A stretch of 64,000 nucleotides of DNA from Verrucomicrobia bacterium UBA1629 (GTDB taxonomy: Bacteria; Verrucomicrobiota; Kiritimatiellia; RFP12; UBA1067), in the NCBI GenBank assembly GCA_002321305.1, contig DCMF01000098.1, positions 28,976 to 92,975 on the forward strand, in the 5' to 3' direction. The position numbers and the translations under genes were made by a program. Every line of letters starts with the position of its first letter. The first letter of the stretch is position 1. The notes under the pieces were generated by a model that worked only from the letters and a program-made list of their open reading frames with translations, made no database searches and had not been told where the DNA came from. Of the stretch, positions 3,556-54,783 are shown piece by piece.

Positions 3556-4575
3556 TCAGATCACCGTCAGCAAGTCGTTGCGGTAAAGCGCGCGGATCGC
3601 ATCGCAGTCGAGCGTGTGCCCCGCGCGATAGCTGACGACCGTGCCGACGAAGCGGTGCGCGCCCGTCAGGGCCAAGGCCGCCATCAGGTCGAGCGTCGCC
3701 CGGTGCCAGACAGGCTCCAGGAACTTCTCGCCGACCGGGAAGCGAGGCTCCGTGTAGTAGCGCCCCTTCCCGTGGATGAGGATGTTGCGCTCGTTGTAGC
3801 CGAGGTTGCGCGTCGAGGCGAAGAGCCGCCCCACCGTCTTCGCAAGGATGTACTGCCGCCGCGTCGCGTTCGTCCGCGCCAGCGCGGCATAGCGGAACGT
3901 CTCCGGCGTCACGTCGAAGAGGATGCGCTGGTCGCCGATCACGGTGTTCCACGAGATGCCGCAGTCGATGCGCAGATTCCGCTCGCCATCCGCCGCCGGG
4001 AGGAACAGGAGGAAGTCGCCGCGGCTGCCGCCGAAGGCGACCGGCTCCTTCACCGTCACGCACGTCGCCGGCGCGTCCGTCTCGCGGATGCCCGCGTGCT
4101 CCACCGCCTTGACGAGCGGCAGGGACGATTGGTCGAAGAGCGGCGGGTCGCCGGAATTGACCTTCAAGAGCACGTCGTCGATGCCCAGCCCCAGCTTGAG
4201 CGCGATGATGTGCTCGACCATGCGCAGGTAGTTGTGGGGCGAGCCCGACCGCAGGACGAGGTTCTGCGCGCTCGTCCAGAGGTTCGCGATGTCGACCTGC
4301 GTGTCGAGCTGCTCCGGCTGGTCCATCCGGCGGATCCACCAGCCCGGCTTTTCGCTCGGCGCGAACGTCAGCGTCTGCTTGTGGCTGCCCTGGAACGTGC
4401 CGATGCCCGCGACCGGGGCCTCGCCCGCGAGCGTGCGCCGCGCCGACGGGAACGGCGAGACGCGTCTTTCCGCCAGCCGCGTCTCGTCAATCGGCAGCTC
4501 CCTAAAAAGTCGGTACGCCGCATCGATCGATGCGGCGCTCCCGAACACAATCTTGCCGATTGGATATTCCGGCAT
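3556..4575 (-). CDS. lpxC: UDP-3-O-acyl-N-acetylglucosamine deacetylase (LpxC family).
   Basis: VEHIIALKLGLGIDDVLLKVNSGDPPLFDQSSLPLVKAVEHAGI aligns with E. coli LpxC [44 protein letters not shown]. The zinc-ligand region WHRATLD is present. Confidence 0.75.
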   Translation of the reverse strand: MPEYPIGKIVFGSAASIDAAYRLFRELPIDETRLAERRVSPFPSARRTLAGEAPVAGIGTFQGSHKQTLTFAPSEKPGWWIRRMDQPEQLDTQVDIANLWTSAQNLVLRSGSPHNYLRMVEHIIALKLGLGIDDVLLKVNSGDPPLFDQSSLPLVKAVEHAGIRETDAPATCVTVKEPVAFGGSRGDFLLFLPAADGERNLRIDCGISWNTVIGDQRILFDVTPETFRYAALARTNATRRQYILAKTVGRLFASTRNLGYNERNILIHGKGRYYTEPRFPVGEKFLEPVWHRATLDLMAALALTGAHRFVGTVVSYRAGHTLDCDAIRALYRNDLLTVI

Positions 4576-4897: not shown

Positions 4898-6223
4898 TCA
4901 CGTGCAAGAGGGTGCCGAGAAAGTCGCGGCAAGGCGCCGAGCGAGGACGGGAAGTCCCGGGTCGCGGGCCCCGCATGTCACGAAGCATCCGAAGGCGCCG
5001 CGATGCGCCGCGCACCAGTCGAACGCCGCGTCGAGATCGGCGACCAGCCGTACGCGCGCGCCCGCCGCCGCGTCCGCGCGCGTCACCGCCGCAACGAGCG
5101 CGTCCGAGTTGATCGAGCGGTCGGTCGTTCCGCCCGCGTCGTAGACAGGCAGCAGCAGCAGCCGGTCCTGCGGACGAACCGTCTCCGCGAACATCGCCGC
5201 GAGCGCGTCCCTCATCTTCCTGAGCGGCGCGTAGCCATGCGGCCGCCAGATCGCGCAGACGCCCTGCGGATACCGCTCCGCCAGCGTCGTCCACATCGCC
5301 TTCAGCTTTTCCGGGTTGTGCGCGTAGTCGTCGTAGACGGCAGGTTCGGGAGGTTTGGAAGGTTTGGGAGGTTTGGAAGGTTCGGGAGGTTGGGGAGGTT
5401 GGGGAGGTTGGGGTGGGGTGATGAGCTGAAGGCGGCGCTCGACGCCACGGAAGGTCTTCATCGCGGCCACCGCATCGGACAGCTTCACGCCCAGAGCGAC
5501 CGCCATGCGCACCGCCAACTCGGCATTCTGCCGATTGTGCCGCCCCGGTACCGGCACTTCCAAACCTTCCAAACCTCCCGAACCTTCCAAACCGCCAAAC
5601 ACTTTCCTCCCATCCACCACCGGACCCTTGCAGCCTTTCACGAACGCATCGAAGACCGCATCCATCTCCTCCTTCGAGTAGTGGTCGGCGGAGGCGTTCG
5701 TGACAATGGCCGCATAGGGGCTGAAGGCGACGAGCGACTTGTCGCTCTCGTCCACCTCGGCGACGGCGAAGGCTCCGCGCCCGAAGCGCACCGCGCCCTC
5801 CCAGCCGGGCACGTTCGCGCCGTTCACGCACATCGGGTCCAGCCCACAGGACGCGAGGACGTGTCCGAGCATCGCCGTCACCGTCGACTTGCCGCAAGTG
5901 CCGACGACGGCGACGAGGCGATAGTCCCGAAGGGCGCGCGCAAGGGCCTTGGCGCGGTGCGTGACGGGAATGCCGAGCGCCTGCGCCTTTCGCAGCCCGG
6001 CGTTCGTCGGCTCAATGGCCGTCGAGACGATCACCTCGTCCGTCGCCGCATCGACGCCGCTGCCGTCGTCGGGAAAGACCTTCACGCCGAGCGATTCGAG
6101 AAACCGGACGTTCGGCGTGTCGCGTGTGCGATCCGCGCCCGTCACCCCGTCGCCCGACCGCACGAGCGCCGTCGCGAGCGCGCTCATGCCCACGCCGCCA
6201 ATGCCAATCAGATGCCGCTTCAT
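4898..6223 (-). CDS. murC: UDP-N-acetylmuramate--L-alanine ligase MurC. It carries two low-complexity in-frame insertions (GLEGSGGLEGLE and PPQPPQPPQPPEPSKPPKPSKPPEP).
   Basis: N-terminal IGIGGVGMSALA, Mur ligase motif VGTCGKST, and GRHNRQNAELAV. Confidence 0.85.
   Translation of the reverse strand: MKRHLIGIGGVGMSALATALVRSGDGVTGADRTRDTPNVRFLESLGVKVFPDDGSGVDAATDEVIVSTAIEPTNAGLRKAQALGIPVTHRAKALARALRDYRLVAVVGTCGKSTVTAMLGHVLASCGLDPMCVNGANVPGWEGAVRFGRGAFAVAEVDESDKSLVAFSPYAAIVTNASADHYSKEEMDAVFDAFVKGCKGPVVDGRKVFGGLEGSGGLEGLEVPVPGRHNRQNAELAVRMAVALGVKLSDAVAAMKTFRGVERRLQLITPPQPPQPPQPPEPSKPPKPSKPPEPAVYDDYAHNPEKLKAMWTTLAERYPQGVCAIWRPHGYAPLRKMRDALAAMFAETVRPQDRLLLLPVYDAGGTTDRSINSDALVAAVTRADAAAGARVRLVADLDAAFDWCAAHRGAFGCFVTCGARDPGLPVLARRLAATFSAPSCT
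5340..5418. repeat. Family A 9-bp tandem array (GGAGGTTTG/GAAGGTTTG units) inside murC. It encodes a PPQ/PPE/PSK tract.
   Basis: ggaggtttggaaggtttgggaggtttggaaggttcgggaggttggggaggttggggaggttgggg. Confidence 0.8.
5558..5600. repeat. Family A array in inverted orientation (CCAAACCTTCC units) inside murC. It encodes GGLEGSGGLEGLE.
   Basis: ccaaaccttccaaacctcccgaaccttccaaaccgccaaac is the reverse complement of the 5340-5418 array. Confidence 0.8.
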
Positions 6224-6262
6224 CCGCGTGTCAAGACGGCGTTCCCGTGTGCGCCGCCCCCG

Positions 6263-8845
6263 TTACAGGCTTCTCGGCAGCTCCTCCAGCGAGTAGCACT
6301 CGATCGTGTCGCCGACCTGGAAGCCCTCGTAGTTCGCGAAGCACACGCCGCATTCCTGCTGGCCCGTCACTTCCTTCACCTCGTCCTTGAAGTGGCGCAG
6401 CGTCTGCACCTTGCCGTCCCACACCTGCGCCTTGCTGCGGAGGATGCGGAAGCGCTCCTTGGCGACGAGCTTGCCGTCGAGCATCTGCGAGCCGGCGATC
6501 TTGCCGAGCTTGCCGATGTCGTAGATCGCCTTGATCTCGGCGTGGCCGAGGACGACTTCCTTGTACTCCGGCGGCAGCAGGTCGAGCATGCAGTTCTTGA
6601 CGTGATCCAGGAGCTCGTAGATGATGCGGAAGGAGTTGATCCGGACGCCGTCGTGGCGCGCCTGCTGCTGGACGCCCGAGTCGTTGCCGATGTCGAAGCC
6701 GACGAGGATCGCCTTGCCGGCGGCGGCGGACTTGACGTCCGTCAGCGAGACGTTGCCCGTGCCCGTGCCGATGATGTTCAAGGCCACCTTCTCGGACTTG
6801 ATCTCGTTCAGCGCCTGCACGATCGCCTCCAGCGAACCCTGCGTGTCGGACTTCACGATCACGTTGAGCTCGCGCTTGCCCTCGGCGGCCATCGCGCTCA
6901 TGAGCGCGTCGAGCGTCGCGGCCTTCGAGGTCGAGAGGGCCTCCTCCTTCTTCTCCTGCGCGGTCTGCTCGGCGAGCGTGCGCGCGCGCTTCTCGTCCAG
7001 CATGACGCGGAACTCGCTGCCGGCCTCCGGCACGCCCGACAGGCCCGTGCACTTCACCGGCGTCGCCGGCGGGGCCTCCTTGATGCGGCGGCCGTGGTCG
7101 TCGATGAGCGCGCGCACCTTGCCGAAATGCTCGCCGATGAGGATCGCGTCCCCGACCTTGAGCGTGCCGCCCGTGACGAGCAGCGTCGCGCACGGGCCAA
7201 GGCCCTGCTGCAGCTCGGACTCGATCACGAAGCCGTTCGCGCGGCGGTTCGGGTTCGCCTGGAGCTCCAGCACCTCCGCCTGCACGAGGATGTTCTCCAG
7301 GAGCGCGTCCACGCCGAGGCCCGTCACGCCCGAGACGGGGCAGCAGATGATGTCGCCGCCCCAGTCCTCCGGCGTCAGGCCCCGCTTCTGGAGCTGCTGC
7401 TTGACGCGATCGACGTTCGCCGTCGGCTTGTCGGCCTTCGTGATCGCGACCATGATCTGCACGCCCGTCTGGCGGCAGACCTTGATGCACTCCTCGGTCT
7501 GCGGCATGATGCCGTCGTCGGCCGCCACGATGAGGACGGCGATGTCGGTGATCTGCGCGCCGCGCGCACGCATCGCGCTGAACGCGGCGTGTCCGGGCGT
7601 GTCGAGGAACGTGATCTTCTTGCCCGCGATCTCGACCTGGTAGGCGGAGATCTGCTGGGTGATGCCGCCGGCCTCGCCCGCCGCGACATGCTCCTTGCGG
7701 ATGTAGTCCATCAGCGTCGTCTTGCCGTGGTCGACGTGGCCGAGGAACGTGACGACCGGCGCGCGCGGCTTCAGCGTCTCGGGCGGATCCTCCGGAATGA
7801 GGTCGTCCGCGTCGATCGCCTTCAGGACGGGCTTCGCCGCCGCCTTGTCGCGGGCGTGCTCGATCGTCACCTTGAAGCCGTACTTCTCCGCGACCTTCGT
7901 CGCGACGTCCGGCTCGACGCGCTGGTTGATGGACGCGAGGACCTTCAGCCCCATCAGGTCGGCGATGAGGCGGTTCGGCTTGATGTTGAGCTTCGCCGCG
8001 AGATCCTTCACGACCACCGCGCCGCGGATCGAGATCTCCTTGTTCGCCTCGTCCACGGAAATGCGGCTGCCCTGCTCCATCACCTTCGGCGCCACCACGC
8101 GCGGCGCGCCCTTGTCGAGGCCCTTGCCGCCGTCGCGGTCCTTCCGGCCCCTGCCGCCGTCACGCCCGGCGACGCCCACGGAAATCGTCGGCTTCGGCGG
8201 CTTCGGCTTCGGGGCGGCCGCGACGGAAATCGAGATCGTCGCCGCCGGCCGCGCGTGCTGAAGCGGACGGAACCCGGCCGCCGTCAGCCCCGTCTTCGCG
8301 GCGGAGATCGTCGGAATGACCTTCGGCTTCACGCCCGGCGCCATGCGGATCTTGGGCGTTGAGGGTTGAGTGGTGAGAGGTGAGGGATGAGAAGTGAGGG
8401 GTGAGGGATGAGAAGTGAGGGGTGAGGGGGAAGGGGTTGGAGAGGGCGGCGCCTCTCGCGTCCCTTCCGTCCCTCTCGTCACGGCAGCGGCAGCCGCCGC
8501 CGGAGCCGCCGTCGCCGCGGCCTTGAACGCCTTGCCTTCCGCCGCGTCCTTCGCGATCTTCAGGTGTTCGGCGAGCTTCGCCTTCTGCGCGGCGAAGAAC
8601 GCGGCGTTCAGGTCGGCCACGCGCTTCGCCTTGGCGGCGCGCGCCGCCGCGACGTCGGCCTTCGGCGCGTTCGCGAGCGCCAGCCTGAGCGCGGCGAGTT
8701 CGCCGTCCTCGACCGCGCTGATCGCGCTTGTGACCTCGACGCCGGCCTTTTCGGCCACGCGCAGCACCTCGGCGCTCGTGACGCCCGCCTCCTTGGCAAT
8801 TTCACAGACTCTCATGGGTTCAGCCTTCCTCTCCCTCGTGCGCAT
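6263..8845 (-). CDS. infB: Translation initiation factor IF-2. The start is possibly at Met11 (8815). It contains an in-frame heptad repeat insertion, SHPSPLT x3.
   Basis: N-terminal MRVCEIAKEAGVTSAEVLRV and G-domain VVTFLGHVDHGKTTLMDYIR...DTPGHAAF. Confidence 0.95.
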   Translation of the reverse strand: MRTRERKAEPMRVCEIAKEAGVTSAEVLRVAEKAGVEVTSAISAVEDGELAALRLALANAPKADVAAARAAKAKRVADLNAAFFAAQKAKLAEHLKIAKDAAEGKAFKAAATAAPAAAAAAVTRGTEGTREAPPSPTPSPSPLTSHPSPLTSHPSPLTTQPSTPKIRMAPGVKPKVIPTISAAKTGLTAAGFRPLQHARPAATISISVAAAPKPKPPKPTISVGVAGRDGGRGRKDRDGGKGLDKGAPRVVAPKVMEQGSRISVDEANKEISIRGAVVVKDLAAKLNIKPNRLIADLMGLKVLASINQRVEPDVATKVAEKYGFKVTIEHARDKAAAKPVLKAIDADDLIPEDPPETLKPRAPVVTFLGHVDHGKTTLMDYIRKEHVAAGEAGGITQQISAYQVEIAGKKITFLDTPGHAAFSAMRARGAQITDIAVLIVAADDGIMPQTEECIKVCRQTGVQIMVAITKADKPTANVDRVKQQLQKRGLTPEDWGGDIICCPVSGVTGLGVDALLENILVQAEVLELQANPNRRANGFVIESELQQGLGPCATLLVTGGTLKVGDAILIGEHFGKVRALIDDHGRRIKEAPPATPVKCTGLSGVPEAGSEFRVMLDEKRARTLAEQTAQEKKEEALSTSKAATLDALMSAMAAEGKRELNVIVKSDTQGSLEAIVQALNEIKSEKVALNIIGTGTGNVSLTDVKSAAAGKAILVGFDIGNDSGVQQQARHDGVRINSFRIIYELLDHVKNCMLDLLPPEYKEVVLGHAEIKAIYDIGKLGKIAGSQMLDGKLVAKERFRILRSKAQVWDGKVQTLRHFKDEVKEVTGQQECGVCFANYEGFQVGDTIECYSLEELPRSL
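8355..8445. repeat. Family C heptamer minisatellite in frame in infB. 3 x 7 bp gives a 7-aa period, producing SPLTSHP repeats.
   Basis: ggttgagtggtgagaggtgagggatgagaagtgaggggtgagggatgagaagtgaggggtgagggggaaggggttgg. Confidence 0.8.
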
Positions 8846-22470: not shown

Positions 22471-25734
<3,264 letters not shown>

Positions 25735-26513
25735 TTTCGATCATTTCCTCAAAAGGTTTCAGAAGGCCAAGAATTGGTCAGAAAGCCAAGAATTGGGAAG
25801 TTAGAAAGTGGTATGAAGCGTGGCATGAAGAGTTATATGAAGAGTTGTATGAAATGAAGGCGAGAAGTTAAGGCGAGAAGTTAAGGCTAGACATATAAGA
25901 CTAGAAATTAAAGCAAGAAGTTAAGGCAAGACATAAAGGCTAGAAGTTAAGGCTAGAAGTTTCTGAAAGCTTGATTTTTATTTTGCCATTCGACGGACTC
26001 ATTCCCGCTGCGCGTCCATTCGTCCGTCGCGGCGCGGCGGTTGGACGGACGGGCAGGCATCTGCACACGCCCGTTCCCGCTGCGCGTCCATTCGTCCGTC
26101 GGCAACAGCACGGCGGCGCGGGCCGGGAATCAGGCCGTCTTTCAGGGGGCGCCGCACGTCGACCGTCGCACGAGCGGACGCGCAGCGGGAGTGAGTGCGA
26201 CGGCTGATGAACTTACCTTCCGTCATCTGGCCTCTCCCCTGTCATCTGGTCTCTCCCCGATCATCTGACCTCTGGTCTCTCCCCAGTCATCTGGTCTCTT
26301 CCCAGTCATTTGACCGCTGGACTCTTCCCTGTCATTTGACCTCTTCTCAATCATTTGATCTCTTTCCTCCTTCTCGTCTTCTTCTCCCTCCTTCTCTCTT
26401 CTTCTACCTTCATCTACCCGTCGTCTCTCCGCTTCCCCTTCGCCCTTCCTCTTGTCGCCCCCTCTTCTTTCGGCATCCTCTCCGCCTGCTGAGATCCGCT
26501 TTTCGTCCTCCCT
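25735..26513. repeat. 779-bp intergenic region upstream of uvrA with four distinct repeat blocks. They are paired CCAAGAATTGG boxes, a purine-rich tandem array (AAGGCGAGAAGTT units, about 25850-25965), two 28-bp direct repeats embedded in hairpins (26002-26029 and 26074-26101), and a pyrimidine-rich tandem array (GTCATCTGGTCTCTCCCC units, about 26220-26340).
   Basis: Read directly from the sequence. No convincing ORF, tRNA or CRISPR structure is present. Confidence 0.7.
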
Positions 26514-29003: not shown

Positions 29004-29125
29004 GATGAGATGTGAGAGGTGAGGGATGAGATGTGAGAAGTGAGGGATGAGGGATGGGAGGTGAGAAGTGAGGGATGAGAGGTGGGAGGTGAGAAGTGAG
29101 GGGTGGGAGGTGAGGGATGGGGTGT
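29004..29125. repeat. Family C heptamer minisatellite (GTGAGGG / ATGAGAA / GTGGGAG units), intergenic between rho and coaE.
   Basis: gatgagatgtgagaggtgagggatgagatgtgagaagtgagggatgagggatgggaggtgagaagtgagggatgagaggtgggaggtgagaagtgaggggtgggaggtgagggatgggg. Confidence 0.8.
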
Positions 29126-29805
29126 CAGGAATGGCGTGTGAGCCATGTCAGGAATTTTTTAACTTCTTCTTTCAGTTCTTCGGGTGTGCCGTCGTTGTGA
29201 ATCACGTAGTGGGATTTGGCGGCCTTCTCCGCAACCGGCATCTGCGCCGCCAGTCGGGCCTCGGCCTCTGCGCGCGTGTAGCCGCGCGTCGTCATCATCC
29301 GCGAGATCTGCGTTTCCCTCTCGGAGACGACGCAGCATATTATATCAAAATTTTTCTCCCAGTGTGCTTCGAAGAGGAGAGGGATGATGGCGAGGCGAAA
29401 GTTTGGGACGTTTGGGAGGTTTGGAAGGTTCGGGTGGTTGGGGAGGTTTTTTTGGGGGGGTAAAGGATGGGAAGATTTGAAAAACGTGTGACCAGAACCC
29501 CTTCCTGCACAGTTCCTATCTAGACTTTCCAAACCTTCCAAACCTCCCAAACCTCCCAAACTTTCCGAACCTTCCAGAAATTCCTCAATCCTTTCCTTCA
29601 CAACCGGATGAAGCTTCGCTTCGAGTGCGCGGCGCTTCGCGGGGTCGGAAAAGACTTCGGCGGCGAGGCGTTTGCGCTCCGCCGGATCGGGAATCAGCTC
29701 ATGCACGATGTCGTCGGCGTCAATCGTCTCGACGCCGAAGTCGTTCAAGAAACGGGCAACGAGCGATTTGCCGCACGCAATGCCACCTGTCAAGCCTATT
29801 CTCAT
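29125..29805 (-). CDS. coaE: Dephospho-CoA kinase CoaE. It carries a roughly 60-aa in-frame insertion derived from a family A inverted-repeat element.
   Basis: MRIGLTGGIACGKS Walker A, with C-terminal CoaE homology resuming at RLAIIPLLFE. The insert is LEGSESLGGLGGLEGLESLDRNCAGRGSGHTFFKSSHPLPPQKNLPNHPNLPNLPNVPNF. Confidence 0.85.
   Translation of the reverse strand: MRIGLTGGIACGKSLVARFLNDFGVETIDADDIVHELIPDPAERKRLAAEVFSDPAKRRALEAKLHPVVKERIEEFLEGSESLGGLGGLEGLESLDRNCAGRGSGHTFFKSSHPLPPQKNLPNHPNLPNLPNVPNFRLAIIPLLFEAHWEKNFDIICCVVSERETQISRMMTTRGYTRAEAEARLAAQMPVAEKAAKSHYVIHNDGTPEELKEEVKKFLTWLTRHS
29396..29585. mobile_element. Family A MITE-like element inside coaE. Terminal inverted arrays of GGTTTGGAAGG units flank a roughly 60-bp unique core.
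   Basis: Left arm gtttgggacgtttgggaggtttggaaggttcgggtggttggggagg. Right arm ccaaaccttccaaacctcccaaacctcccaaactttccgaaccttcc. The core does not encode CoaE-like sequence. Confidence 0.55.
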
Positions 29806-38199: not shown

Positions 38200-39285
38200 T
38201 CACATCACCTTCATCTTCGGCAGGTCCTGGATGTCCACAAGCCCCACGATGCGGCCTTCCGCGTCGCAGACGGGCAGGTCGTCGATTCGCATCCTCTCGA
38301 AGATCTTCAGCAGCTCCGCCGCGTAGGCGTCGTCATGGACGAACTTGGGCGATTTCGTCATATGCTCGGCGACAGGCGCCGAGAGAATAATCGAATAATC
38401 GAATCGCCGAATCGTCGAATCGGGGGAAGTCTCCGAACCCGACGAAGCCCCCGTCTCTTCATTCATTCGATCATTCGACCATTCGTTCATTCGATTATTT
38501 TCCCGACTCATCACCCGCCGGAAGTCGCCGTCGGTGAAGATGCCGAGAAGCCGGCCCGCCGCATCGGCGACGACCGCCGCGCCGCCCTGCGCCTTCGTCA
38601 TCGCCATCACGGCCTCCATCACCGTCGCCGTCGGCGCGACCTTCGCGAGCCGGTCGCCCGTGCGCATGATGTCCGTCACCTTGAGGACAAGCGCACGGCC
38701 GATCGCGCCGGCCGGATGGTTCGCCGCGTAGTCCGCAAGCGAGAACTTCTGCGCGTCGATCATCACCATCGCGAGCGCGTCGCCCATCGCGAGCGTCGCC
38801 GTGACCGAGTTCGTCGGCGCCATGCCGAAGGGACACGCCTCCTTGCCGCAGGGAATCTCCACGTGCAGGTCGGCGAGCCGCGCGAGCGTCGACTGCGGAT
38901 TGCCCGTCAGCGCAATGACCTTCAGCCCGTGGCGGCGAATCGCCGGGATGAGCCGCACGACTTCCTCGGACTCGCCGCTGAACGAGAGCGCAATCAGCAG
39001 ATCGCGCGACGACACCATGCCGAGGTCGCCGTGCATCGCCTGCACGGGATTGAGGACGATCGAGCGCGTGCCCGTCGAGGCGAAGATCGCGCTCATCTTC
39101 TCCGCGACGTGCAGGTTCTTGCCGACGCCCGTGACGACGACGAGTCCGTCGTTCGCCACGCAGTCCCGCATGAGGCGGATGGCCGAGACGAACGATGCGC
39201 CGAGCGAGTCGCGGGTCTTCTTCAGACCCTCGATCTCGATGTCGAAGACTTGCTTCGCGCGCGTGATCATCTCGGTTTCGGTCAT
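38200..39285 (-). CDS. kdsD: Arabinose-5-phosphate isomerase (KdsD/KpsF type, SIS plus tandem CBS domains). It carries a family B in-frame insertion between the CBS domains.
   Basis: SIS region VVVTGVGKNLHVAEKMSAIFASTGTRSIVLNP...ALSFSGESEEV and CBS pairs. The insert is MSRENNRMNEWSNDRMNEETGASSGSETSPDSTIRRFDYSIILSA. Confidence 0.85.
   Translation of the reverse strand: MTETEMITRAKQVFDIEIEGLKKTRDSLGASFVSAIRLMRDCVANDGLVVVTGVGKNLHVAEKMSAIFASTGTRSIVLNPVQAMHGDLGMVSSRDLLIALSFSGESEEVVRLIPAIRRHGLKVIALTGNPQSTLARLADLHVEIPCGKEACPFGMAPTNSVTATLAMGDALAMVMIDAQKFSLADYAANHPAGAIGRALVLKVTDIMRTGDRLAKVAPTATVMEAVMAMTKAQGGAAVVADAAGRLLGIFTDGDFRRVMSRENNRMNEWSNDRMNEETGASSGSETSPDSTIRRFDYSIILSAPVAEHMTKSPKFVHDDAYAAELLKIFERMRIDDLPVCDAEGRIVGLVDIQDLPKMKVM
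38382..38504. repeat. Family B element in frame in kdsD.
   Basis: gagagaataatcgaataatcgaatcgccgaatcgtcgaatcgggggaagtctccgaacccgacgaagcccccgtctcttcattcattcgatcattcgaccattcgttcattcgattattttcc. Confidence 0.8.
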
Positions 39286-41780: not shown

Positions 41781-41845
41781 CATTCATCTCATTCGATTAT
41801 TCAGTCATTCGATTATTCGATTATTCGATCATTCGATTACTGTTC
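41781..41845. repeat. Family B-type single-orientation array (CATTCGATTATTCG units) spanning the 3' end and stop of the giant gene.
   Basis: cattcatctcattcgattattcagtcattcgattattcgattattcgatcattcgattactgttcgatctcgacc. Confidence 0.6.
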
Positions 41846-44800
41846 GATCTCGACCTTGTAGAAGCCGCCGGTCGCCTGGACGTCGGACATCGGAACGCGG
41901 ATGACGCCCGACTTCAGGCTGTCGCCCGAAACCGTCACCGCCTCCGTCGCGACCGTCTGCCATTCGCCCGCAAGCGTCGCGGTGTGCAGCACCTTCACCG
42001 TCACCGTCGAGCCGAGCTTGACGCGGTAGACCCCCGACGCGACCTGTTCCGGCTGCGTGACCGAACCCGCGACCGTCAGCTCGACAGCCCCCGCCGCCGC
42101 GTCGAACGCCATGCCGGAGATGACCAACGTACCGTCCTCGACGGTCGGGTTTTGGCAGAGCTCGCCCGTCGCCGGATCAACCGTCAGGTTCGGCGAAACG
42201 CCCATCGCCAGCGCCGCGAAGGACGCGGACGAGAGGAAGGCGTTCTGGATGCCGCTCGCCAGACCCGCCGTCGGCACGTTCGCGCGGTTGATCTCGTAGA
42301 GCATGTCCCTGACCAGGGTGTTGTCGATGGCGACCTCGCCCGCACCCGACAGGGTCAGGCGATCCACGCCCTTGGCCGTCAGGAACGTGCCGTTCGCGCG
42401 CTGTGCCGCCGTCGCCATCACGTACTCCCAGGCGTCCGGCAGGTTGTCGCCGTCCGTGTCAGCGTCTTCGAGGTAGATCGTCACCGCCTCGCTCGCGCCC
42501 ACGCTGCCGCCGACCGTGACCGCCACCGGGTTGAGGTAGTCGGCCGTCGAGCCGTCACGCTGGCAGAAGTAGCCCATCGACTCCCACTTGTCCCAGACGC
42601 CGTTGCCGTTCGAGTCCACGAACGCCTGCAGGTAGTAGTCGCCCTTCGGGAGCCCGAGGAGGCGGCAGTTGACGCCGCCGTCCGTCACCGTCTTGTCGAC
42701 GAATCCGCCGGAGACCGGCGCACCCGTGAAGTCGGGCGACGTGTAGGCCCGGACGCGGATGAGCGCGTTCGCGTCGTTCGTGACGACCGCCGGCCCGTAG
42801 TAGCGGACGGACGTCTGGATGCTGCCGATGTCGTAGCCGTTCGTCTGCACGCCCATGCGGAACGTGCCGCCCGTGACGAAGCTGTCGTTCTTGAACTTCG
42901 CGTTCGCCGCGGAAATCGACCACGTGTACGCCTTGTTGTTCTCGAAGACGCCCGTCGCGCCCGCCGGACGGTCGCCGACGAACACCGGCGCCGCCCATGT
43001 GTAGACGCCGTCCGCATCCGCCGCCGGCATCCGCAGGTAGTCGCTCGTCCAGCTGAACGCGCCATCCGCGCTCTTGATCATGACCTTGAACGCCGTGTAG
43101 CCGTTGCTGTTGTAGGGCATCCGCCACTGGAACGTCGGCTGACCCAGCTTCACGACGCCGTTGCCGCTGGCAATCGGCTCGGGCAGAAGGCGCTTCGTGT
43201 CGAACCAACGCACCGGCATCACCTTCGACATGTTGCTCGATTCACCAAGGGACGCAACCGATTCGTTTCCAATTACAATGCGGTAGACGACACCGAGTAC
43301 ATCGCCCAACATGTACTGTGAAGCCCCCGTCGAAGACGGAATGCGCCCGTTACTGCCTATCCGACTAATAACATCACCATACAAAGTCTCCCAATCTACA
43401 TCTAACGCGCCCGTCGCCAAGAAGTTAGCCTCGGTAATCCACGGATTCACGCCATCAGAGACTTGCATGTCAAGGATGACGCGATTGCCTCCTGCGCCAA
43501 CATCTTCAGCGAAAACCTCGCCCTGCGTACCGAAGATGATGTGCCGCACGACGCGGATGCGGTTGTAGACGCCGCCGCTCGGCTGGGACGCCGACACGAA
43601 GTTCGTGTAGTTGCCGCTTTCCGTGCCGTAGAGGACCGTGCGATCATCGAGACCCTTGATCGGATCGACGCGCGCAAAGACCGGCGTCGTGTCCGTCAGC
43701 ATGAGCGCGGCCGACGTGCCCTTCCACGAGACGTCCACGCCCGTGACGCAGCCATAGGGCTCGCCCGCCGTGTACGCGCCGTCGCCGTCCAGGTCGGCGA
43801 AGGCGATGATCGTGTTCAGGCCCTCGCGGACGTGGCCCGTGTCGGCCTGACCGAGGTAAAGCTTGCGCGGCAGGCCCACCGCCTCGTTCGCCGAATAGGC
43901 GATACGGAAGGACTGATCCTCCAGCGAGATGTAGTCGCTGTCATTCGTCACGTTGGAGACGTACTGATCCTTGAAGACACCAAGGTTGAGGTCGAATGCA
44001 CCCGTGGTCAAATCGACCGTGCCAAGCACGCGCCCCGACTTGGTGTGAAGCCACTTCGCGGTCTTGCTGCTCTCGTCGCTGCGAACCTCCAGATCCGTCA
44101 GCACGCTGTACTCCGTGCCGCGCGAGAGAAGCTCAACGTTGTTGTCGCCGTACTTGCGCCTGTCGGCGTCATATTCGGCGCGCGTACCGCGCTTGTCCTC
44201 GTACCACACCTTTCCCGTGGCGACGCGGTAGTGGGTGACCGACCAGCTGTACGTCTCGCTCGACGGATCGTAGCAGAACTCAAGCTGCAGGGAGTTCTTG
44301 TTAATGTAGCCCGGCGTCAACGTACCGATCGCGTGGCGATTCGACCACTTGCCAATCGTCCGCGTATAGGCCGTGCCGTCGGCGGTCTGCGACGAGCCGC
44401 TGCCGGAACTGGACGTTCCCGTGCCTGTGCTGCTCGTCTTGCTGACCTTGCCGATGTTGTAGACGGCATCCGCCCCGCGGTTCATGTTCGTGCTCGTGTA
44501 CGTCTGGACGACGAGCGACGCCTTCTCGACCGCATCCTTGCGCGGACCCGCGTAGTTGACGGCGAGTGCAACCGCCGGGATCGGATAGTCCGCCACAAGG
44601 CCATCGGCCGCCGCATAGTGCGACTGCTCATCGGCAACAATCGGCATGCCCTGCTTCGCGTAGCGCGCCTCGCTGCGGTTCGACCAGCCGTCGCCGTCCG
44701 CATCCGCATACGGGTCATAGACGCTGCGCGAGGCATAGCCGTCCGAATAGAGGTCTTCCCAAGCGTCGTCCACAAGGTCGTGGTCAGTGAAGATCTCGCC

Positions 44801-47800
44801 GACGTAGAGGTCGCCGACCTGGAAGAAGTAGTCGGGCACGCCCGGATTCACCGAATCGGCGCGCGTCGGGTCGAACCGCTTGCCCAGCTTCGAGAACACC
44901 TCGGAAAGAAGGTATTCGACATAGTTCGGGAGGCCGTCGTTGTCATGGTCGTCGAGGCCGGACTCGTTCTGGAGGCCGTAGAGTTCCTCCCACCAGTCGG
45001 GCAAGCCGTTGCCGTTGACGTCGTAGCGCTGACGGAATTTCTCGACGCTGGCGTCGTCCGTAACGGGGTCATCGTTCTCGTCACCGTGATAGCCGCGCGC
45101 CAAGTCGCGCAGATACGCCTCGTAGGCCTTCATGTACGTGCCATTCGTCTGGTCGGGCCACCTGACGAGCGTTTCCCAGCCGATGTCGCCCGTTCCCGTG
45201 ACCGCGTTGTCGCGGTAGAGGTCATTGGCCAGCTTCTCCCACCAGTCAGGCAGGCCGTCGCCGTCCTCGTCGGCGCCGGCGACCTCCCAGTTCGAGGACG
45301 ATCCCTGGCTGTCCCACAGGTCATCGGTGTGCTTCGCGTAGGCGCCGCCGAGCGCAAGCAGATCGTCGCCCATCTGGTTGAGATGGCGCCCCGTGAACTC
45401 GAAAAGCGTCACGAAGTTCGAATTGTTCGACACGGCGGCGTCATACGTCGCCGCGAAGTGGCGACGGCTGCTCGCCGCAAAGTATTCCGCGTCCGTGTAC
45501 TTGACGTCGCCGCGCAGGTACTGCGTCCAAAGCGAAACCGGCTCGGCCGTGCGGGCGAACTTGTACGAACCTGCCATGTCGCCCTTGTAGTCCTCGCTCC
45601 AGTAGCGGGAGTCGAGCGTCGTGCCGTCGTAGCGCGGCAGGTGCGCGACGGTGTTCGGCACCCAGCAGATCCACGCCGGGTGGTTGTAGACCGTGTCCGT
45701 GTAGCCCGCCAGAACGTCCTGCCACCACGCGATGCCGTAGCCCTCCGGGCGCGAGCGGAGCGCACGCCCGCCGTCGCCAGCCGCGTTCACGCCTTCGTAG
45801 TCGAACCCGGCCGGGGCCGTCGCGACCGCGCCCTCGTTCGCCGCGCCGAAGAGCGAGTCGAACGCCCAGTGGAAGCGCAGTTCCGCCGGGAGCGGATACG
45901 GATTGCCGCTGCCGTCCTTCGCGTAGCGGCCGCGGTAGATGTCGCTCACGCCGCCCTTGCTCCACTCGGCGAAGAACGCCTCGCGGTTCGCCTTCGCGTC
46001 CTCGGACGTGAAGCGCGTCATCTTCGCGGCGGCGATCTCGTCCGCCGTGCGCGCGCCGTCCCAGATGCGGACTTCATCGACAAAGCCCGTGAAGAAGCTC
46101 TTGTAGGCGTCCCAGCCGAGGCCGCGCGTGACGTCCAGCGCGAGACCTTTGCGTCCGTCGGCCGTCGTCTTCACGCTCGCGCCGATGACGATCGCGTGAT
46201 GCGAGTAGATGCGTCCGCCGAGGTACGCGCCGCCGGGGTCACTCGTCGCGGCGTCGATCATCCCATAGGTCGGCTGAAGCCCCGACTTGACGTAGCCGGC
46301 AACCTTGCCGTCCACGTAGAGCGTCAGCGTGTCCGCATCATACGTCGCCGCGAGATGCGTCCATGCCGTCGTCGCCGGAAGATCGCTGAACGCCTCGACG
46401 GTGTTGCGCGTCGTGTCGTTCGGGTCGAAGCCCGTGTACCACCGGCCGCCCTTCAGGCCGAGGCGGAAGTTGCAGCGGACGTACTCGCGGTCGTCCGGGC
46501 TCGACATCTCCACGCGCACCGCGCGCTCGATGACGGTCGCGTCGTCCAGCGACTCCGCCTTGACCCAGCACTCGACCGTGTACTGGACGAACTCCATGTC
46601 ATCAGGATACCGCCCGCCACGGGAAGCCAGCGGATGGTACTCGCGTGTGAAGGGCATGGTCTGGAGGATCGAGGGGCGCGTCGGGCCCTGGAAGTACATC
46701 GCCTGGCGACGGCGCGGCGAATCCGCGTCGATCGGGTCGGTCTTGCCGCGATACTTGCCAGCGACCTCGTCCTGGTCATTGAGGCCGTCATGGTCGGAGT
46801 CGAAGCCCTCGTTCTGCTCGAAGGAAGCGACCCAGCCATAGGCGTTGTTCACGCCGACGACCTTCCAGGCGTCGGGGTTGTAGCCGATGAACGCGCCACC
46901 GGCCATGTCAGCCGACGCATAGCCGTCAAAGTCGGCGAACCGATACGTCTGGCCCCCGAAAGTGAAGCCGTCGCCCGACAGCATGATCGCCTCGGCGCGA
47001 TACGGCATGCGGTAGTTCATGCGCACGAGCGAGTTCGAGTAGGTCGAGTCGGTCATCCACAGCGGCGTCGGGTCGGTATGGTGCCAGATCGCCGTCGGAT
47101 TGACGAGCGGCATGATCGCCTCCTCCTGGTTGCGGATGCCGTCGCCGTCGGGGTCGGCCGTCGCGAGGCCGTTCAGCCACGGGAAGACCTCGAAGTCGTA
47201 GCCGTTGCCACGCGGCTGCTTGCCCGTCCAGCTCGGCAGGGAGACCTTGCGCTGCCAGTAGTTCAGGGTGGAGGCGGTTTCTCCCCAGGCCTCCGGCGTC
47301 AGCTTCGTGTTCGAGTAGAGCGCGTCATAGATGACGTCAAAGCCGCCCGAATCCTTCAGCTGGCCACTCCGTCCCAGAAGCGGGTTCATGCCGTGGAAGA
47401 CCTCGTAGTAGTCGTCCATGCCGTCATGGTCGGTGTCAGGGTCGATCGGCGAGCAGCTCGCGTACTTCGTCGGCACGTAGTTGATGTCGCTCGGCTTCGC
47501 GCCCAGGACGGCCTCCCACGCCGCGCCCCACGTGTCCTTGAACTTGTGTTCGTTGGCGCGGTCGTAGAACCAGTAGTAGGCGCCGGTCGTCTTCTTCTTG
47601 CCCAGCGTAAAGTCGAGATAGGCCGCGTCCCAGACGTTCGTCACGCGCGAGAAGTACTGCGCGCCCGAACCCATGTCCATGACGAGGTGCGGGTTGTAGA
47701 TCGCGCTGGAGGCGTCCACGAGCGTCTTGTACCAGAACTCGTTCACGTCGTCGCTGCCGAGCAGGCCGGCCGCGTGGAACTTGCGCGCCGCCGCGCCCGC

Positions 47801-50800
47801 GTCGAAGACGACGTTGGTCGTGGCGGGATCGACCGTGTAGTAGAAGTCGGACGGCAGATAGGTCAGCGGGCTGAACGGGTCATCGTAGCGCCAGCAGCGC
47901 ATTGTGCCCGTCAGGTACTCCTGCCAGTTCTCCAGGCCGTCGTTGTCATAGTCGCGGTTGACGTCGCCCGGCTTCGTGTAGGCGTCCTCGACCGTGCCGT
48001 CCATGCCGTCGACGTAGCCCTTGGTCTCGTCCGTCGTCCCGTCCTTCGCGTAGACCGTCTTGCCCGCGAACTGCTTCTCCCAGCCGTCGGGGAGACCGTC
48101 GCAGTCGGTATCGACCGAGTTCGGGTTGAGGCCGCCGCCGGGGATGACGCGGAGCGTACCGTGCGTCGCGTCGTCATACGTCGCCGTCGTGTAGGCGAAG
48201 GCGTTCCGCTCGTCGGCGTCCTTCACGCCGTCGCCGTCGGTGTCGGGACTCCACGGATCGGTCGGGAAGAACTTGTTGAGCCACTTCCAGCCATCGTCGC
48301 CGTGCTTGACGGTGTCCGAATACTTGGCGTAGTAGAGCATCGTGTCGGTGCCCTCGAACTCCTGGAACTCGTTGAGGCCGTCGCTCATCTCCTGGCCGCC
48401 GAGGTAGATCTGGTTGCTCGTGTCGTTCGACTTCGCGGACTCGATGAACGGCGAGAACCAGCTCTTCTCCATCGCCTCGGTCGCGTTCGCGGGCGTGAAG
48501 CCGGCATACGGCGGCGCGAAGACGTAGGCGCCGTCCTTCTTCTTCGGGCCGGCCATCACGTAGAGTTCCCAGCCGTCCGGCACGCCGTCGTCGTCCGTGT
48601 CGGCGCCGTTCGTCGAGCTGCGCCCGTAGTAATGTTCAGACGACGTCTTCTCCGCGTCGTTCGGGCCCTGCGGATTCGTCGTCAGCGCCCACCAGAAACG
48701 CGCGAGGCTCGGCGCGTCCTTGGCCATCACGGAGGTCTCGTAGCTCAGCGTCTCGCCATCGGGCGTGTTGTTGACGAAGAAGGCGCTCACGAGGAACTCG
48801 TCGTAGTTCGCGTAGGCGCGCGTCCGGGCCGGGACGCCCGTGTAGCCGCCGCGATCGACGACGTAGATGCCCTCCTCGGCCTCGCCGTTCGTGACCTTGC
48901 CCCAGCGCTTGTGCAGCGGGTTCGTCGGATTCCACGCCGTGCGCGGATCGAAGCCGAACTCCTGGTAGCAGAGGAAGTGGAGGAACGCGACATCGCGCTC
49001 GTCGCTCGGCAGCGCGGCGACCTCGGCGCCCGCCGCGACCGCGCGCTGACGCGCGAGCGCGAGGCAGCCGTACTCCGCCGCCGTCTCGGCGACTTCGCCA
49101 AGCTGCGTCCGCGCCGCGCCCTTGCCGTAGATCCAGCAGGCGTTGGCGTCCTTCGCGTCAATCGCCGTCGCGATCTTGTAGGACTTGACCTCCTCGGCGA
49201 GCGGCGTCACGACGACCCGCGTGCCGATCGGCAGCGTGTAGGGATAGCCGAGGGCCTTCTCCTCGGTGGCGCCGTCCGGCTTCCACGTCACGAGCGTCCG
49301 GACCTTCGTGTCGACCGCGAGGCGCGAGACGGAGCCTTCCGTCGCCACCGTCGGCTCGGTCTCGGCGAAGAACGTGGCGGTCGCGCCGTCCACGACGGCC
49401 GTGACCTGATAGCCGCCCGCAAACGTCGCGAGGACTTCCAGCTTCGACGTCGGGTCGGCCTTCACCGCGTACCACTGCACGCCGTCCGTGTCGCCGCTCG
49501 CGTCGATGACCGCAAACGTCCAGCGCTTGGCGTGCTCGTAGTTGACGGGCACGGGCAGCTCGGTCTGCTCCAGCTTGTAGGAGCTGATCGCCATCGCGTC
49601 GCCGTCCGTGTTGCGCTCGGTGTCGGAGAGGCCGTCGGCATAGCTCTGGGCCATAAGCGGGTCGAGCCCGGCGATCATGACCTCCCAGCCGTCCGGCAGC
49701 CCGTCGCCGTCGGTGTCGAAGTCAAACGGGTTCGTGCCCAGCTCGAACTCCAGCAGGTCGGGCAGCCCGTCGTTGTCGCTGTCGCGCGTCGCCGCGTCCG
49801 ACCCCGTGTATTTCACGCGCGGATCCATGATCTCGGCGATCGTCTCCGACGTGATGAGCGTGCCCAGCCCCGGATTCTTCTCGTCGTAGCGACGACCCGT
49901 CAGGTACTTGTGATTGCCGTACGCATCAATGTAGCCGACGTGCGCGAGATACCAGTAGTAGTACTCATAGCCATCGGAGAAGCCGTCCTTGTCGGTGTCC
50001 TCCTCCGTCGGATCTGTCGGGCGCTCCGGTGACCAGTCTGCCTCGGTCGCGCCCGGATGCGCCGCCTTGTACTCGCTCCACGCGAGCCATTCGACGCGGC
50101 TGAGCGTCGAGGTCGGGCAGGTCGCCGGGTCTTCGTAGATCCGAACCGACGTGACACCAAGCCCAAGCTGCTCCAGCGCGTCGTTCAGGCCCTTGCCGTA
50201 GCCACGGATTTCAAGGTCTGCCGTGAACGGAGACGACCAGTCATCCTTCAGGCCGGGGATCAGCGACCCGTAGATCGCGTTGTCGGCCGCCGGCAGATAG
50301 TCCTCGTCCTCGTTGTACGCAGACAGGTCTTCCAAGTCATCGCCAGAGATCTGAAGCGTCTGCGGGTCAATGACGCCAAAGCCGAACTTCTTCACGGCAA
50401 CGTCCGGGATGCCGTCCTGGTTGATGTCGCCCGCATTGTCCGTGGGGAGGTACTCGCGGGAGAAGACCGCTTCCCAGTACTGCATCGGGTAGGATGTCGT
50501 CGCGCCCGAACTGCTGTTGTTGCCCTGATTGGCGCTGTCCGGCAGGGAGAGAACCGTCTCGCCCTGGTCGGTGATGTTCAGCTTGAAGGTCTCCGTCTGC
50601 CCGCCGCTCGACTCGCCGCCCGAAGACGCCGCGTTGTTGCAGACCCAGGCATAGACGAAGCTGTCATAGCCGTGAAGCCCCCACCTGTTCTGCTTCGAGT
50701 AGTTGTAGAACTCATCGGGCGCGATCGTCGTGCCTTTCGACCAATTGCCGGCGCTGTCAATGCCCTTGCTCTGCGCCAGCGAGCCATTGTCGTATGACCC

Positions 50801-54352: not shown

Positions 54353-54783
54353 TTGGAAATGGGGTCCTTGGGGGTGATGCGCGCACGCACCGTGTTCAGC
54401 GTCGCCTTGCGGCTCGCCTCGACCTTGGCCGTCGCCTCTTCGCACTGACGGCAAAGCTCCTGCCACGCCGGCTCCTTCTCCAGCTCGGCCTTGACCTTCG
54501 CCAGGTCGTCCGTTCCGAGCGCGCGCTTCTTCGCGTCAATCATCGCCTTCATCTGCGAGACGATTTCGCTGCGGGCGCGCAGAAGCCCCTGCCGCGCCTT
54601 GCGGTCGGCCGAGAGCTTCTGGCGAAACGCCGGGTCGTTCATGTAGCTTTCGGGGGCGGACGGATCGACCGTCGCCGCCGCCTTTTCGGACTTGCCGCAC
54701 CCGGCGACAAGCAACAGGCACGCGCCCGCCGCGCACAGCGCGAAAGGCACGAGATTCGGACTCGTACTCGTCTTCAATGTCAT
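54349..54783 (-). CDS. Small lipoprotein with lipobox LLVAGCGK, translationally coupled (ATGA) to the giant gene. Start at MTLKTST.
   Basis: MTLKTSTSPNLVPFALCAAGACLLLVAGCGKSEK..., then a predicted coiled coil. 144 aa. Confidence 0.55.
   Translation of the reverse strand: MTLKTSTSPNLVPFALCAAGACLLLVAGCGKSEKAAATVDPSAPESYMNDPAFRQKLSADRKARQGLLRARSEIVSQMKAMIDAKKRALGTDDLAKVKAELEKEPAWQELCRQCEEATAKVEASRKATLNTVRARITPKDPISK

Follow-up and report, generated by a model that had tools for sequence, protein, structure and literature searches.

Two Complementary Repeat Arrays Lie Within murC

How does an essential, single-function gene such as murC come to carry two tandem arrays of the same short unit, in opposite orientation, on either side of a conserved stretch of its own coding sequence? 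The gene lies in a 64,000-nucleotide stretch of contig DCMF01000098.1 (GenBank assembly GCA_002321305.1) from Verrucomicrobia bacterium UBA1629, of the Kiritimatiellia; we refer to this whole stretch as the window. Both arrays had been located by an original prediction made from the letters of the DNA alone, and its coordinates, unit family, opposite orientation, spacing and peptides all proved correct (5338-5413 and 5557-5596, 143 nt apart). We favor, at a probability of roughly 0.55, the reading that the arrays form a split, in-frame hairpin repeat of the kind known from Rickettsia, whose arms evolve in concert and which is tolerated as selfish or neutral DNA. The gene and the parts in question are:

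4898-6223, minus strand: murC (UDP-N-acetylmuramate--L-alanine ligase), 441 amino acids (aa), with Pfam Mur_ligase N, M and C domains and a match to TIGR01082.
5557-5596, minus strand: G-rich arm at murC site 1, about four units of GGAGGTTTG/GAAGGTTYG, encoding FGGLEGSGGLEGLE, between DGR and VPVPGRHN.
5414-5556, minus strand: enclosed native murC segment, 143 nt, encoding VPVPGRHNRQNAELAVRMAVALGVKLSDAVAAMKTFRGVERRLQLIT.
5338-5413, minus strand: C-rich arm at murC site 2, about eight units, encoding PPQPPQPPQPPEPSKPPKPSKPPEP, between RRLQLIT and AVYDDYAHNPE.

Tandem Repeats Finder reported the array at 5338-5413 with period 9, 8.4 copies and 88% matches (unit CGGGAGGTT), and the other, at 5557-5593, with the same period, 4.1 copies and 85% matches (unit CTTCCAAAC). 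Both lie inside the 441-aa open reading frame (ORF). Read along the coding strand, the order is the G/T-rich array (site 1, FGGLEGSGGLEGLE), VPVPGRHNRQNAELAV…FRGVERRLQLIT, the C/A-rich array (site 2, PPQPPQPPQPPEPSKPPKPSKPPEP) and AVYDDYAHNPE, with the two tract peptides bracketing the conserved VPVPGRHNRQNAELAV…GVERRLQ (PGRHNRQNA…GVERRLQ). The arrays are mutually reverse-complementary, with arms of 40 nt each (5349-5388 and 5557-5596) that are 90% complementary and able to form a stem of ~40 bp. The predicted RNA fold of 5325-5615 had an energy of -146.7 kcal/mol (z = -6.5), with the murC arms paired with each other.

A search with the 19-mer GGAGGTTTGGAAGGTTTGG, representing two units, gave 15 matches in the window at up to three mismatches, where 0.01 were expected from shuffles. 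These were confined to murC and to 29406-29574 within coaE, confirming that the murC arrays belong to the same unit family as the coaE element. On the opposite strand, a 1119-aa open frame (5003-8362, plus) runs antisense to murC and infB and reads through both arrays (…GRFGRFGRFGRLGRLG…, …FQTFQTSRTFQT…); high GC content is its probable cause.

The Tracts Occupy Two Variable Loops of MurC

The best NCBIfam match of the ORF was murC TIGR01082 (5.6e-76, 256 bits), which did not reach the equivalog cut-off of 335 bits, and a phmmer comparison with solved MurC structures gave 1.9e-40 to 4hv4. The original prediction had proposed mapping the tracts on a MurC structure, and both fell in loop or variable regions of solved MurC: site 1 aligned where 4hv4 has ~45-60 extra residues, and site 2 to the first beta-hairpin loop of its C-terminal domain. 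In an AlphaFold2 model with a mean predicted local distance difference test score (pLDDT) of 78.5, both tracts were unstructured, with pLDDT < 50 at residues 210-217 (site 1) and 286-289 (site 2) and no secondary structure over residues 268-294. By this model, the tracts are predicted to encode disordered linkers in two insertion-tolerant surface loops. The central domain of MurC in this clade is ~45-60 residues shorter than that of solved MurC (query 186-222 against 4hv4 chain 207-288), and this shortening may also contribute to the NCBIfam score below the cut-off.

The Tracts Are Derived Insertions That Vary in Length but Keep the Frame

A scan of species-representative genomes with MurC alignment yielded 80 loci, whose taxon labels, where given, were mostly Kiritimatiellae under several older names and whose sample sources were human (Hadza, Nepal), cattle, goat, sheep, yak and chicken gut. 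More than 60 species had short, repeat-free loops of 8-13 aa at site 1 and 5 aa at site 2 (e.g., DGR-VYGEADVS-VPGRHN and RRLQ-KYGEC-VYDDY, respectively), which makes the tracts derived insertions of a sub-clade. As most GTDB representatives lack the tracts, they form a poor set for testing arm complementarity; the informative relatives were metagenome contigs obtained by exact protein look-up. The close set comprised the 120 nearest MurC proteins (72-88% identity, 399-453 aa), which varied chiefly at site 1, at site 2 and at a third site after NSDAL.

Across locus L001, the window and locus L090, tract lengths at site 1 were 11, 17 and 20 aa, and those at site 2 were 14 and 29 aa. Unit number varied even between near-identical MurC proteins, with the frame always kept (e.g., SPSHPLTLSPSPS vs. 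SPSHPLTLSPSHPLTLSPSPS); 7-mer arrays changed length in steps of 21 nt, in frame (proteins P0060 vs. P0080), and the unit of the window murC is 9 nt. All length variants among the orthologues were in frame. The unit-count polymorphism anticipated by the original prediction was thus present, but not the contingency-like switching that it had envisaged, since the changes keep the frame of an essential gene; a frameshift-type contingency locus was rejected on this ground. An assembly artefact is also unlikely, as contigs from many samples, named in different assembler styles, carry the tracts at identical codons.

The constant, stop-free frame and the predicted position of both tracts on surface loops would also suit flexible tethers or interaction motifs selected at the level of the protein, with the complementarity of the DNA incidental. 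We consider such functional linkers very unlikely. Composition at site 1 differed radically among close relatives (Gly/Leu/Glu; Cys/Ser/Ile/Arg; Glu/Lys), as did that at site 2 (Pro/Lys; Gln/Ser/Asn; Phe/Gln/Thr), and tract sequences that are unrelated between close relatives argue against a conserved protein linker. The tracts are moreover absent in most species and predicted to be disordered, and selection on the protein does not predict complementary DNA.

The site 1 array of three relatives (L006, at ~3620-3720, P0014 and P0016) contained a palindromic insert unrelated to the array, with ends TTTTTAACCACGG…CCGTGGTTAAAAA and encoding …NHGLTRMDTE…KIRENSWLK…, which indicates that the site 1 loop attracts unrelated hairpin elements. 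The third hypervariable site, after NSDAL (~5000-5100 in the window), held long repeat tracts in, for example, P0042, P0096 and P0113, and in L081 its tract was of the same 8-mer family as sites 1 and 2 of that genome; the window murC has no array there. Gene order around murC differed among close relatives (L081-L092, L090), the neighbors being variously purB, a heparinase-like gene, a Na/Pi cotransporter, a histidine-kinase-like gene, poly(A) polymerase, a glycosyltransferase and purE, which suggests extensive rearrangement in the clade.

The Two Arms Are Matched Across at Least Nine Unit Families

Within one MurC, the peptides of the two sites were often opposite-strand translations of one repeat, and this repeat differed among lineages. 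When the DNA of site 1 was compared with the reverse complement of site 2, scores were 15-38.5 (shuffle means 5.6-8.6, shuffle maxima 10.5-17), against 4-8 in direct orientation. At least nine unit families were matched by this test: GGAGGTTTG, ATTGTTCG, GGTTGCAAG, GTTGAAAAG, GAATGTTC/GATTGTTT, GGGATGA, GGGAAGA, GAGGTCR and GTTGCGGG. At the peptide level, 55/83 unique site pairs were compatible with antisense translation, compared to 29% in permuted pairs. The G-rich arm was always at site 1: among 117 MurC orthologues there were no C-type tracts at site 1 and no G-type tracts at site 2.

Unit families followed the clades of the enclosed segment. Cassettes with an EWVT-type segment mostly carried 7-mers 1-2 bases apart (GGGATGA, GGGAAGA, GGGATCA, GAGGTCA), those of AVL type carried GTTGCGGG, GTTGCAAG, GTTGAAAAG and ATTGTTCG, and those of LEV type GGTTTGGAA. 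Within the 9-mer family, the 11-mers of the L090 C-arm were common to its own G-arm in 49% of cases, compared to 8-14% for the G-arms of the window and L001, and the sister families GGGATGA and GGGAAGA shared 52% and 29% of 11-mers within a genome and 0% across genomes. This is a compensatory-type covariation, which fits concerted evolution and, equally, selection for a stem.

The original prediction had offered two origins for the pair, and neither is borne out by these data. Two independent events would have solo arrays expanding or inserting separately in two permissive loops, their orientation and family shared by coincidence. Both loops do tolerate insertions, solo arrays do exist (in infB, and at site 1 alone), and site 1 has taken the unrelated palindromic insert of L006, P0014 and P0016. 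However, random orientation and family would rarely produce matched pairs from at least nine families at these two sites, the G-arm first in every case, and the complete absence of C-type tracts at site 1 and G-type tracts at site 2 speaks against it as well; we judge coincidence to be highly improbable. The second origin, an inversion event, is not supported either: every inversion register gives a stop codon, and all readable murC orthologues have the same orientation.

The same results bear on a programmed inversion of the enclosed segment, which would make the arrays sites for phase variation or recoding of MurC. The intragenic invertons of gut bacteria are typified by inverted repeats inside a gene, around a coding segment (PMC10028968), and murC shares this layout. 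Here, unlike in an inverton, inversion would truncate an essential enzyme: simulated at every complementary register, it led to a stop after the arm (…GGVMS*) and a MurC ending at ~residue 229-244. The enclosed segment carries the essential PGxHNxxNA motif, and no inverted allele was found among the readable orthologues (117 proteins; 75 loci). We rejected the inverton, for which the chance is close to nil.

The Arms Delimit a Cassette That Is Exchanged Between Genomes

The 43 residues between the arms had a mean pairwise identity of 0.75, compared to 0.88-0.98 in every other 43-aa window of the protein (87 equal-length orthologues). This segment is conserved in outgroups without arms, yet it is the most divergent stretch of the protein among close orthologues, and its type goes with the arm family and not with the remainder of the protein. 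Between P0062 and P0087, identity was 98.5% in the N-terminal part, 69.8% in the enclosed segment and 96.6% in the C-terminal part; between P0062 and P0097, the corresponding values were 95.9%, 86.0% and 89.7%. At the DNA level, the loci of the first pair (L088 for P0062 and L091 for P0087) were 100% identical for > 1 kb on either side but only 48-73% identical over ~330 nt. This divergent block starts ~45 nt upstream of the G-arm, stops exactly at the outer edge of the C-arm and resembled the L092 (P0097) type at 83-98%. This block is an allelic replacement of the whole arm-segment-arm cassette between genomes by homologous recombination. Recombination at the arrays, which the original prediction had thought plausible between copies, was therefore seen as exchange of alleles between genomes and not as exchange between the murC and coaE copies.

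A second, smaller mosaic patch was present in purB, upstream of murC, where L088 and L091 were 85-97% identical over alignment columns 270-420 in otherwise identical sequence. Here L091 matched L092, as would be expected if homologous recombination were frequent in the population.

Non-synonymous (pN) and synonymous (pS) divergence were both higher in the enclosed segment (pN 0.222, pS 0.611) than in the murC flanks (pN 0.066, pS 0.433; 16 loci). In armless outgroups (34 loci), the ratio of enclosed segment to flank was 1.86 for pN and 0.96 for pS. The segment is thus under intrinsically weaker constraint, but in the armed clade its divergence also runs deeper than that of its surroundings, and we read it as an island of divergence. 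Positive selection on the segment was rejected, the ratio of non-synonymous to synonymous rates (dN/dS) being 0.2-0.4 and not > 1.

Since covariation of the arms over at least nine families is formally the signature of a conserved stem, we also considered that the long-range murC stem might be functional, in mRNA processing or stability, by pausing translation around the catalytic segment or by forming a boundary that promotes cassette exchange, with selection keeping the arms complementary. The strong predicted fold (z = -6.5) and the behavior of the enclosed segment as a distinct evolutionary unit would agree with this. Most species of Kiritimatiellae, however, have no arms, and one-armed and mismatched alleles are common, the most populous cluster among them. 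Elements of the same kind occur in many unrelated genes with presence/absence variation (see below), a scan of the whole window with Rfam found nothing at gathering thresholds, and the dN/dS of the enclosed segment gives no sign of diversifying selection. A selected structure is, on balance, an unlikely explanation, to which we attach a slim chance.

Elements of the Same Class Occur in coaE, uvrA and kpsF

Palindrome scores exceeded those of all shuffles for six elements of the window, all of which lie inside ORFs; the ORFs of murC, coaE, uvrA (three elements) and kpsF read through them. In addition to the murC element, the elements and one solo array are:

29397-29576, minus strand: coaE element of the same 9-mer family as murC, in frame in the ORF at 29125-29805; a G-arm, a 78-bp AT-rich unique core and a C-arm, encoding GSESLGGLGGLEGLESL-DRNCAGRGSGHTFFKSSHPLPPQK-NLPNHPNLPNLPNVPNF.
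24758-24905, minus strand: uvrA element near aa 279, an in-frame hairpin of the 8-mer family (ATTCGAyy); palindrome score 22.5, shuffle maximum 18.
23450-23591, minus strand: uvrA element near aa 718, an in-frame hairpin of the 8-mer family; score 27.5, shuffle maximum 23.
24068-24142, minus strand: compact uvrA palindrome near aa 531, in frame; score 32.5, shuffle maximum 14; its loop is hypervariable in orthologues.
38380-38505, minus strand: kpsF element, an in-frame hairpin of the 8-mer family in a 361-aa ORF (38200-39285); score 21, shuffle maximum 14.
8360-8437, minus strand: infB solo array, an in-frame 7-mer (TGAGGGR on the plus strand) in the N-terminal linker, encoding PSPLTSHPSPLTSHPSPLT.

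The 361-aa ORF is read, from its sequence, as a putative KpsF/arabinose-5-phosphate-isomerase-like SIS+CBS protein. Predicted folds had z = -4.8 for the coaE element, alongside the -6.5 of murC. Two further tracts were rejected as hairpin elements, namely that of infB (palindrome score 8.5, shuffle mean 7.0) and a uvrA tract near aa 147, whose score in the window was not above shuffles. Element cores measured 17-44 bp in uvrA and kpsF and 78 bp, AT-rich, in coaE. The three 8-mer-family elements and the coaE element had mutually unrelated cores, so that only the tandem-unit arms are repeated. No direct repeat suggestive of a target-site duplication was visible at the coaE or murC boundaries, which were inspected by eye only. 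Runs of G were limited to GG in the 9-mer family and absent from the 8-mer ATTCGAyy; families of GGGATGA type could form G-quadruplexes, for which four or more G3 tracts are needed.

The orthologues of the other host proteins varied in a similar way. Among 120 CoaE orthologues, the loop was empty in some (…FLATPALRLAI…, 175-184 aa) and held more than ten different inserts of G-arm, core and C-arm in others, with C-arms of 1-3 LFPLPSS units, in frame. UvrA orthologues had four hotspot loops with such inserts, empty states included, and murC arm families recurred at other loci of the same contigs. The murC arrays therefore belong to a clade-wide class of element and are not a murC-specific feature. 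The original prediction had named as its alternative that they might be fixed, lineage-specific linkers, absent from other loci and identical in distant relatives; they are instead dispersed repeats, present elsewhere and not shared identically by distant relatives.

Array Pairs Have a Constant Polarity

In 641 kb of sequence (the window plus the fetched loci), all 12 complementary array pairs had the G-arm first and none the C-arm; ten of the 12 were murC pairs. A 19-mer scan of metagenomes returned mostly chance matches in unrelated genes, but also seven real array pairs, none of them from Kiritimatiellae. All seven were again G-first with the partner arm downstream. They belonged to the same 9-mer family, although their contigs, of 44-68% GC, were unrelated; they lay apparently outside long ORFs, and some were terminator-like. 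The RGGTTTGRR 9-mer family formed long hairpins, some then followed by T-runs, in L100, L110, L113, L114 and L124/L133. The core of the L110 hairpin held a second small hairpin, and ARAGORN found no tRNA adjoining the L124 element.

This polarity raises the possibility of paired de novo synthesis, in which templated or reiterative extension of 3' ends, at a double-strand break or at two opposite-strand nicks, would add G-rich repeats to both ends, and joining and fill-in would then leave a G-arm, the intervening DNA and a C-arm. In murC the nicks would have been 143 nt apart, with native sequence left between the arms. This is the only model considered that directly predicts several of the observations: the universal G-first order (12/12, and 7/7 in metagenomes), with convergent pairs in Xanthomonas as well (PMC4692102); arms of the same family but of unequal length; unique junction cores without a target-site duplication evident by eye; one-armed alleles, as half-products; and the recurrence of the same 9-mer in unrelated phyla. 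Against it, there is no candidate enzyme or template, none having been sought, and the coaE core, 78 bp of AT-rich non-native DNA, is not simply inter-nick sequence. Unit families also track the clades of the enclosed segment at 1-2 substitutions per unit, for which gradual concerted change is a better fit than repeated rewriting, and opposite-strand heteroduplex insertion loops would segregate into one-armed daughters unless repaired. We consider paired synthesis unlikely, though far from negligible. In its most specific form, the arrays would be footprints of an undescribed, telomere-healing-like templated repeat addition at breaks or staggered nicks, and not inherited mobile copies; this we regard as an outside chance. 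That templated 3'-end addition jointly explains the split arms around native sequence, the 5' position of the G-arm and the 9-mer in unrelated phyla is a tentative and rather doubtful proposal; if true, the same process would also account for the unequal arms of one family, the unique junction cores and the one-armed alleles.

A Proposed Split Hairpin Repeat With Arms Evolving in Concert

According to the reading that we favor, the two murC arrays would be the paired arms of a single hairpin-type repeat, whose G/T-rich arm lies 5' and whose C/A-rich arm lies 3' whichever strand is read. Such repeats would be dispersed through the genomes of a gut/rumen clade of Kiritimatiellae, in frame in surface loops of housekeeping proteins, and in murC the element would be split, its arms seated in two insertion-tolerant loops with 143 nt of native gene between them. 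Complementarity would be kept by concerted evolution, whereby replication slippage would carry unit variants through an array, and template switching or gene conversion between the inverted arrays would pass them to the opposite arm. Alleles with mismatched arms or with a single arm may arise from crossovers between cassette types or with armless alleles, for example in the conserved FRGVERRLQ end. Heterologous arms would block recombination inside the 129-143-nt segment, so that the segment would keep its deep divergence while the flanks are homogenized, and cassette types would persist and move only as blocks. The tracts probably give MurC no benefit and would be tolerated as selfish or neutral DNA.

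Several results weigh against this account. Approximately one quarter of the unique site pairs were not complementary, including the abundant RGLEVWKFGSLEV with SPSHPLTLSPSPS type; L089 and its large cluster combined a 9-mer G-arm with a CCTCTCA C-arm (score 5.5 for L089), and in several lineages site 1 held an array while site 2 was empty (RHGAN or RVGEG). Such mismatched pairs and one-armed lineages mean that complementarity is neither obligatory nor quickly restored. The compact elements have unique, non-native cores and murC is the only split case seen here, which makes its layout atypical. The pN ratio of the armless outgroups implies that part of the variability of the enclosed segment is intrinsic. 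Concerted evolution alone leaves unexplained the same 9-mer family in unrelated organisms of 44-68% GC, the constant G-arm-first order and the origin of the first matched pair around native sequence, and template switching between arms 143 nt apart is a step that we infer and did not observe.

Comparison With Known Repeat Systems

In-frame palindromic repeats have, to our knowledge, been treated hitherto as a peculiarity of Rickettsia. An analogous and more dynamic system is present here in an abundant, uncultured gut/rumen lineage, as hairpin repeats of 7-9-nt units in loops of MurC, CoaE, UvrA and KpsF. In murC, the repeats mark off a block that genomes exchange and in which the divergence of the gene is deepest, a case which may show non-homologous inserts carving recombination islands inside core genes. 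The matched arms of nine families and the strict G-first polarity form a natural dataset on the origin and upkeep of inverted tandem arrays. For annotation and phylogenetics, it matters that repeat tracts dominate the lengths and identities of MurC, CoaE and UvrA in these metagenome-assembled genomes.

Of the known phenomena, the Rickettsia palindromic element (RPE; Ogata et al., 2000, 2002), an in-frame palindromic repeat of many housekeeping genes (PMC10969869), comes closest. Like RPEs, the elements described here are short, palindromic and in frame in many unrelated housekeeping genes, vary in presence and absence, and add peptide segments at positions compatible with fold and function. 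RPEs have a conserved full-length consensus of ~100-150 bp, a feature not encountered here, where only the arms are repeated and the cores are unrelated. Unlike in RPEs, the arms are tandem arrays of 7-9-nt units, many unit families exist side by side, turnover is much more rapid and, in murC, native coding sequence separates the two arms. The hosts also differ, being free-living gut Kiritimatiellae in our case and an obligate intracellular alphaproteobacterium in the case of RPEs.

The GGGAATC heptamer arrays of Xanthomonas, of which ~70-75 nearby pairs are convergent with one array per strand (Rehm et al., 2015; PMC4692102), are, like cyanobacterial heptamer repeats, dispersed tandem arrays of G-rich 7-nt units, and the Xanthomonas pairs share the inverted, G-first layout. 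The Xanthomonas arrays lie mostly between genes, are under-represented in coding sequence and have been discussed as forming G-quadruplexes (PMC4692102), whereas the arrays here are in frame in essential genes, some of their units have no G3 runs, and their paired arms co-vary across lineages. [quoted passage not shown] In contrast to these, our elements have no conserved internal sequence and no target-site duplication evident by eye, and their arms are tandem arrays of variable length rather than the defined terminal inverted repeats of MITEs. Nor did any observation suggest diversity-generating retroelements, integron attC sites or hairpin ends of IS200/IS605 type, although no search was aimed at these.

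Mosaic alleles produced by homologous recombination occur, for example, in the penicillin-binding-protein genes of Neisseria and Streptococcus. As in those alleles, a short block of an essential cell-wall gene is replaced in murC by a more divergent homologue between identical flanks; unlike them, the murC block is bounded by non-homologous repeat arrays, and its dN/dS shows no sign of positive selection.

Other Repeats in the Window

The intergenic region upstream of uvrA (25750-26420) contained purine-rich arrays, with a 13-mer, AAGGCTAGAAGTT, at 25857-25961, then a GC-rich core with inverted repeats at 25991-26029 and 26164-26202, and then pyrimidine-rich arrays of 45-mer and 19-mer units at 26222-26418; the purine-rich and pyrimidine-rich blocks were not complementary by eye. 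Long 7-mer arrays of TGAGGGA/TGAGAAG, the family to which the in-frame infB tract (8360-8437) also belongs, were found at 29006-29114, between coaE and the start of rho, and, on the opposite strand, at 491-566 near the window start. Lastly, a 4209-aa ORF on the minus strand (41837-54466) has an 8-mer array at its 3' end (41791-41839), which overlaps the last three bases of the ORF.

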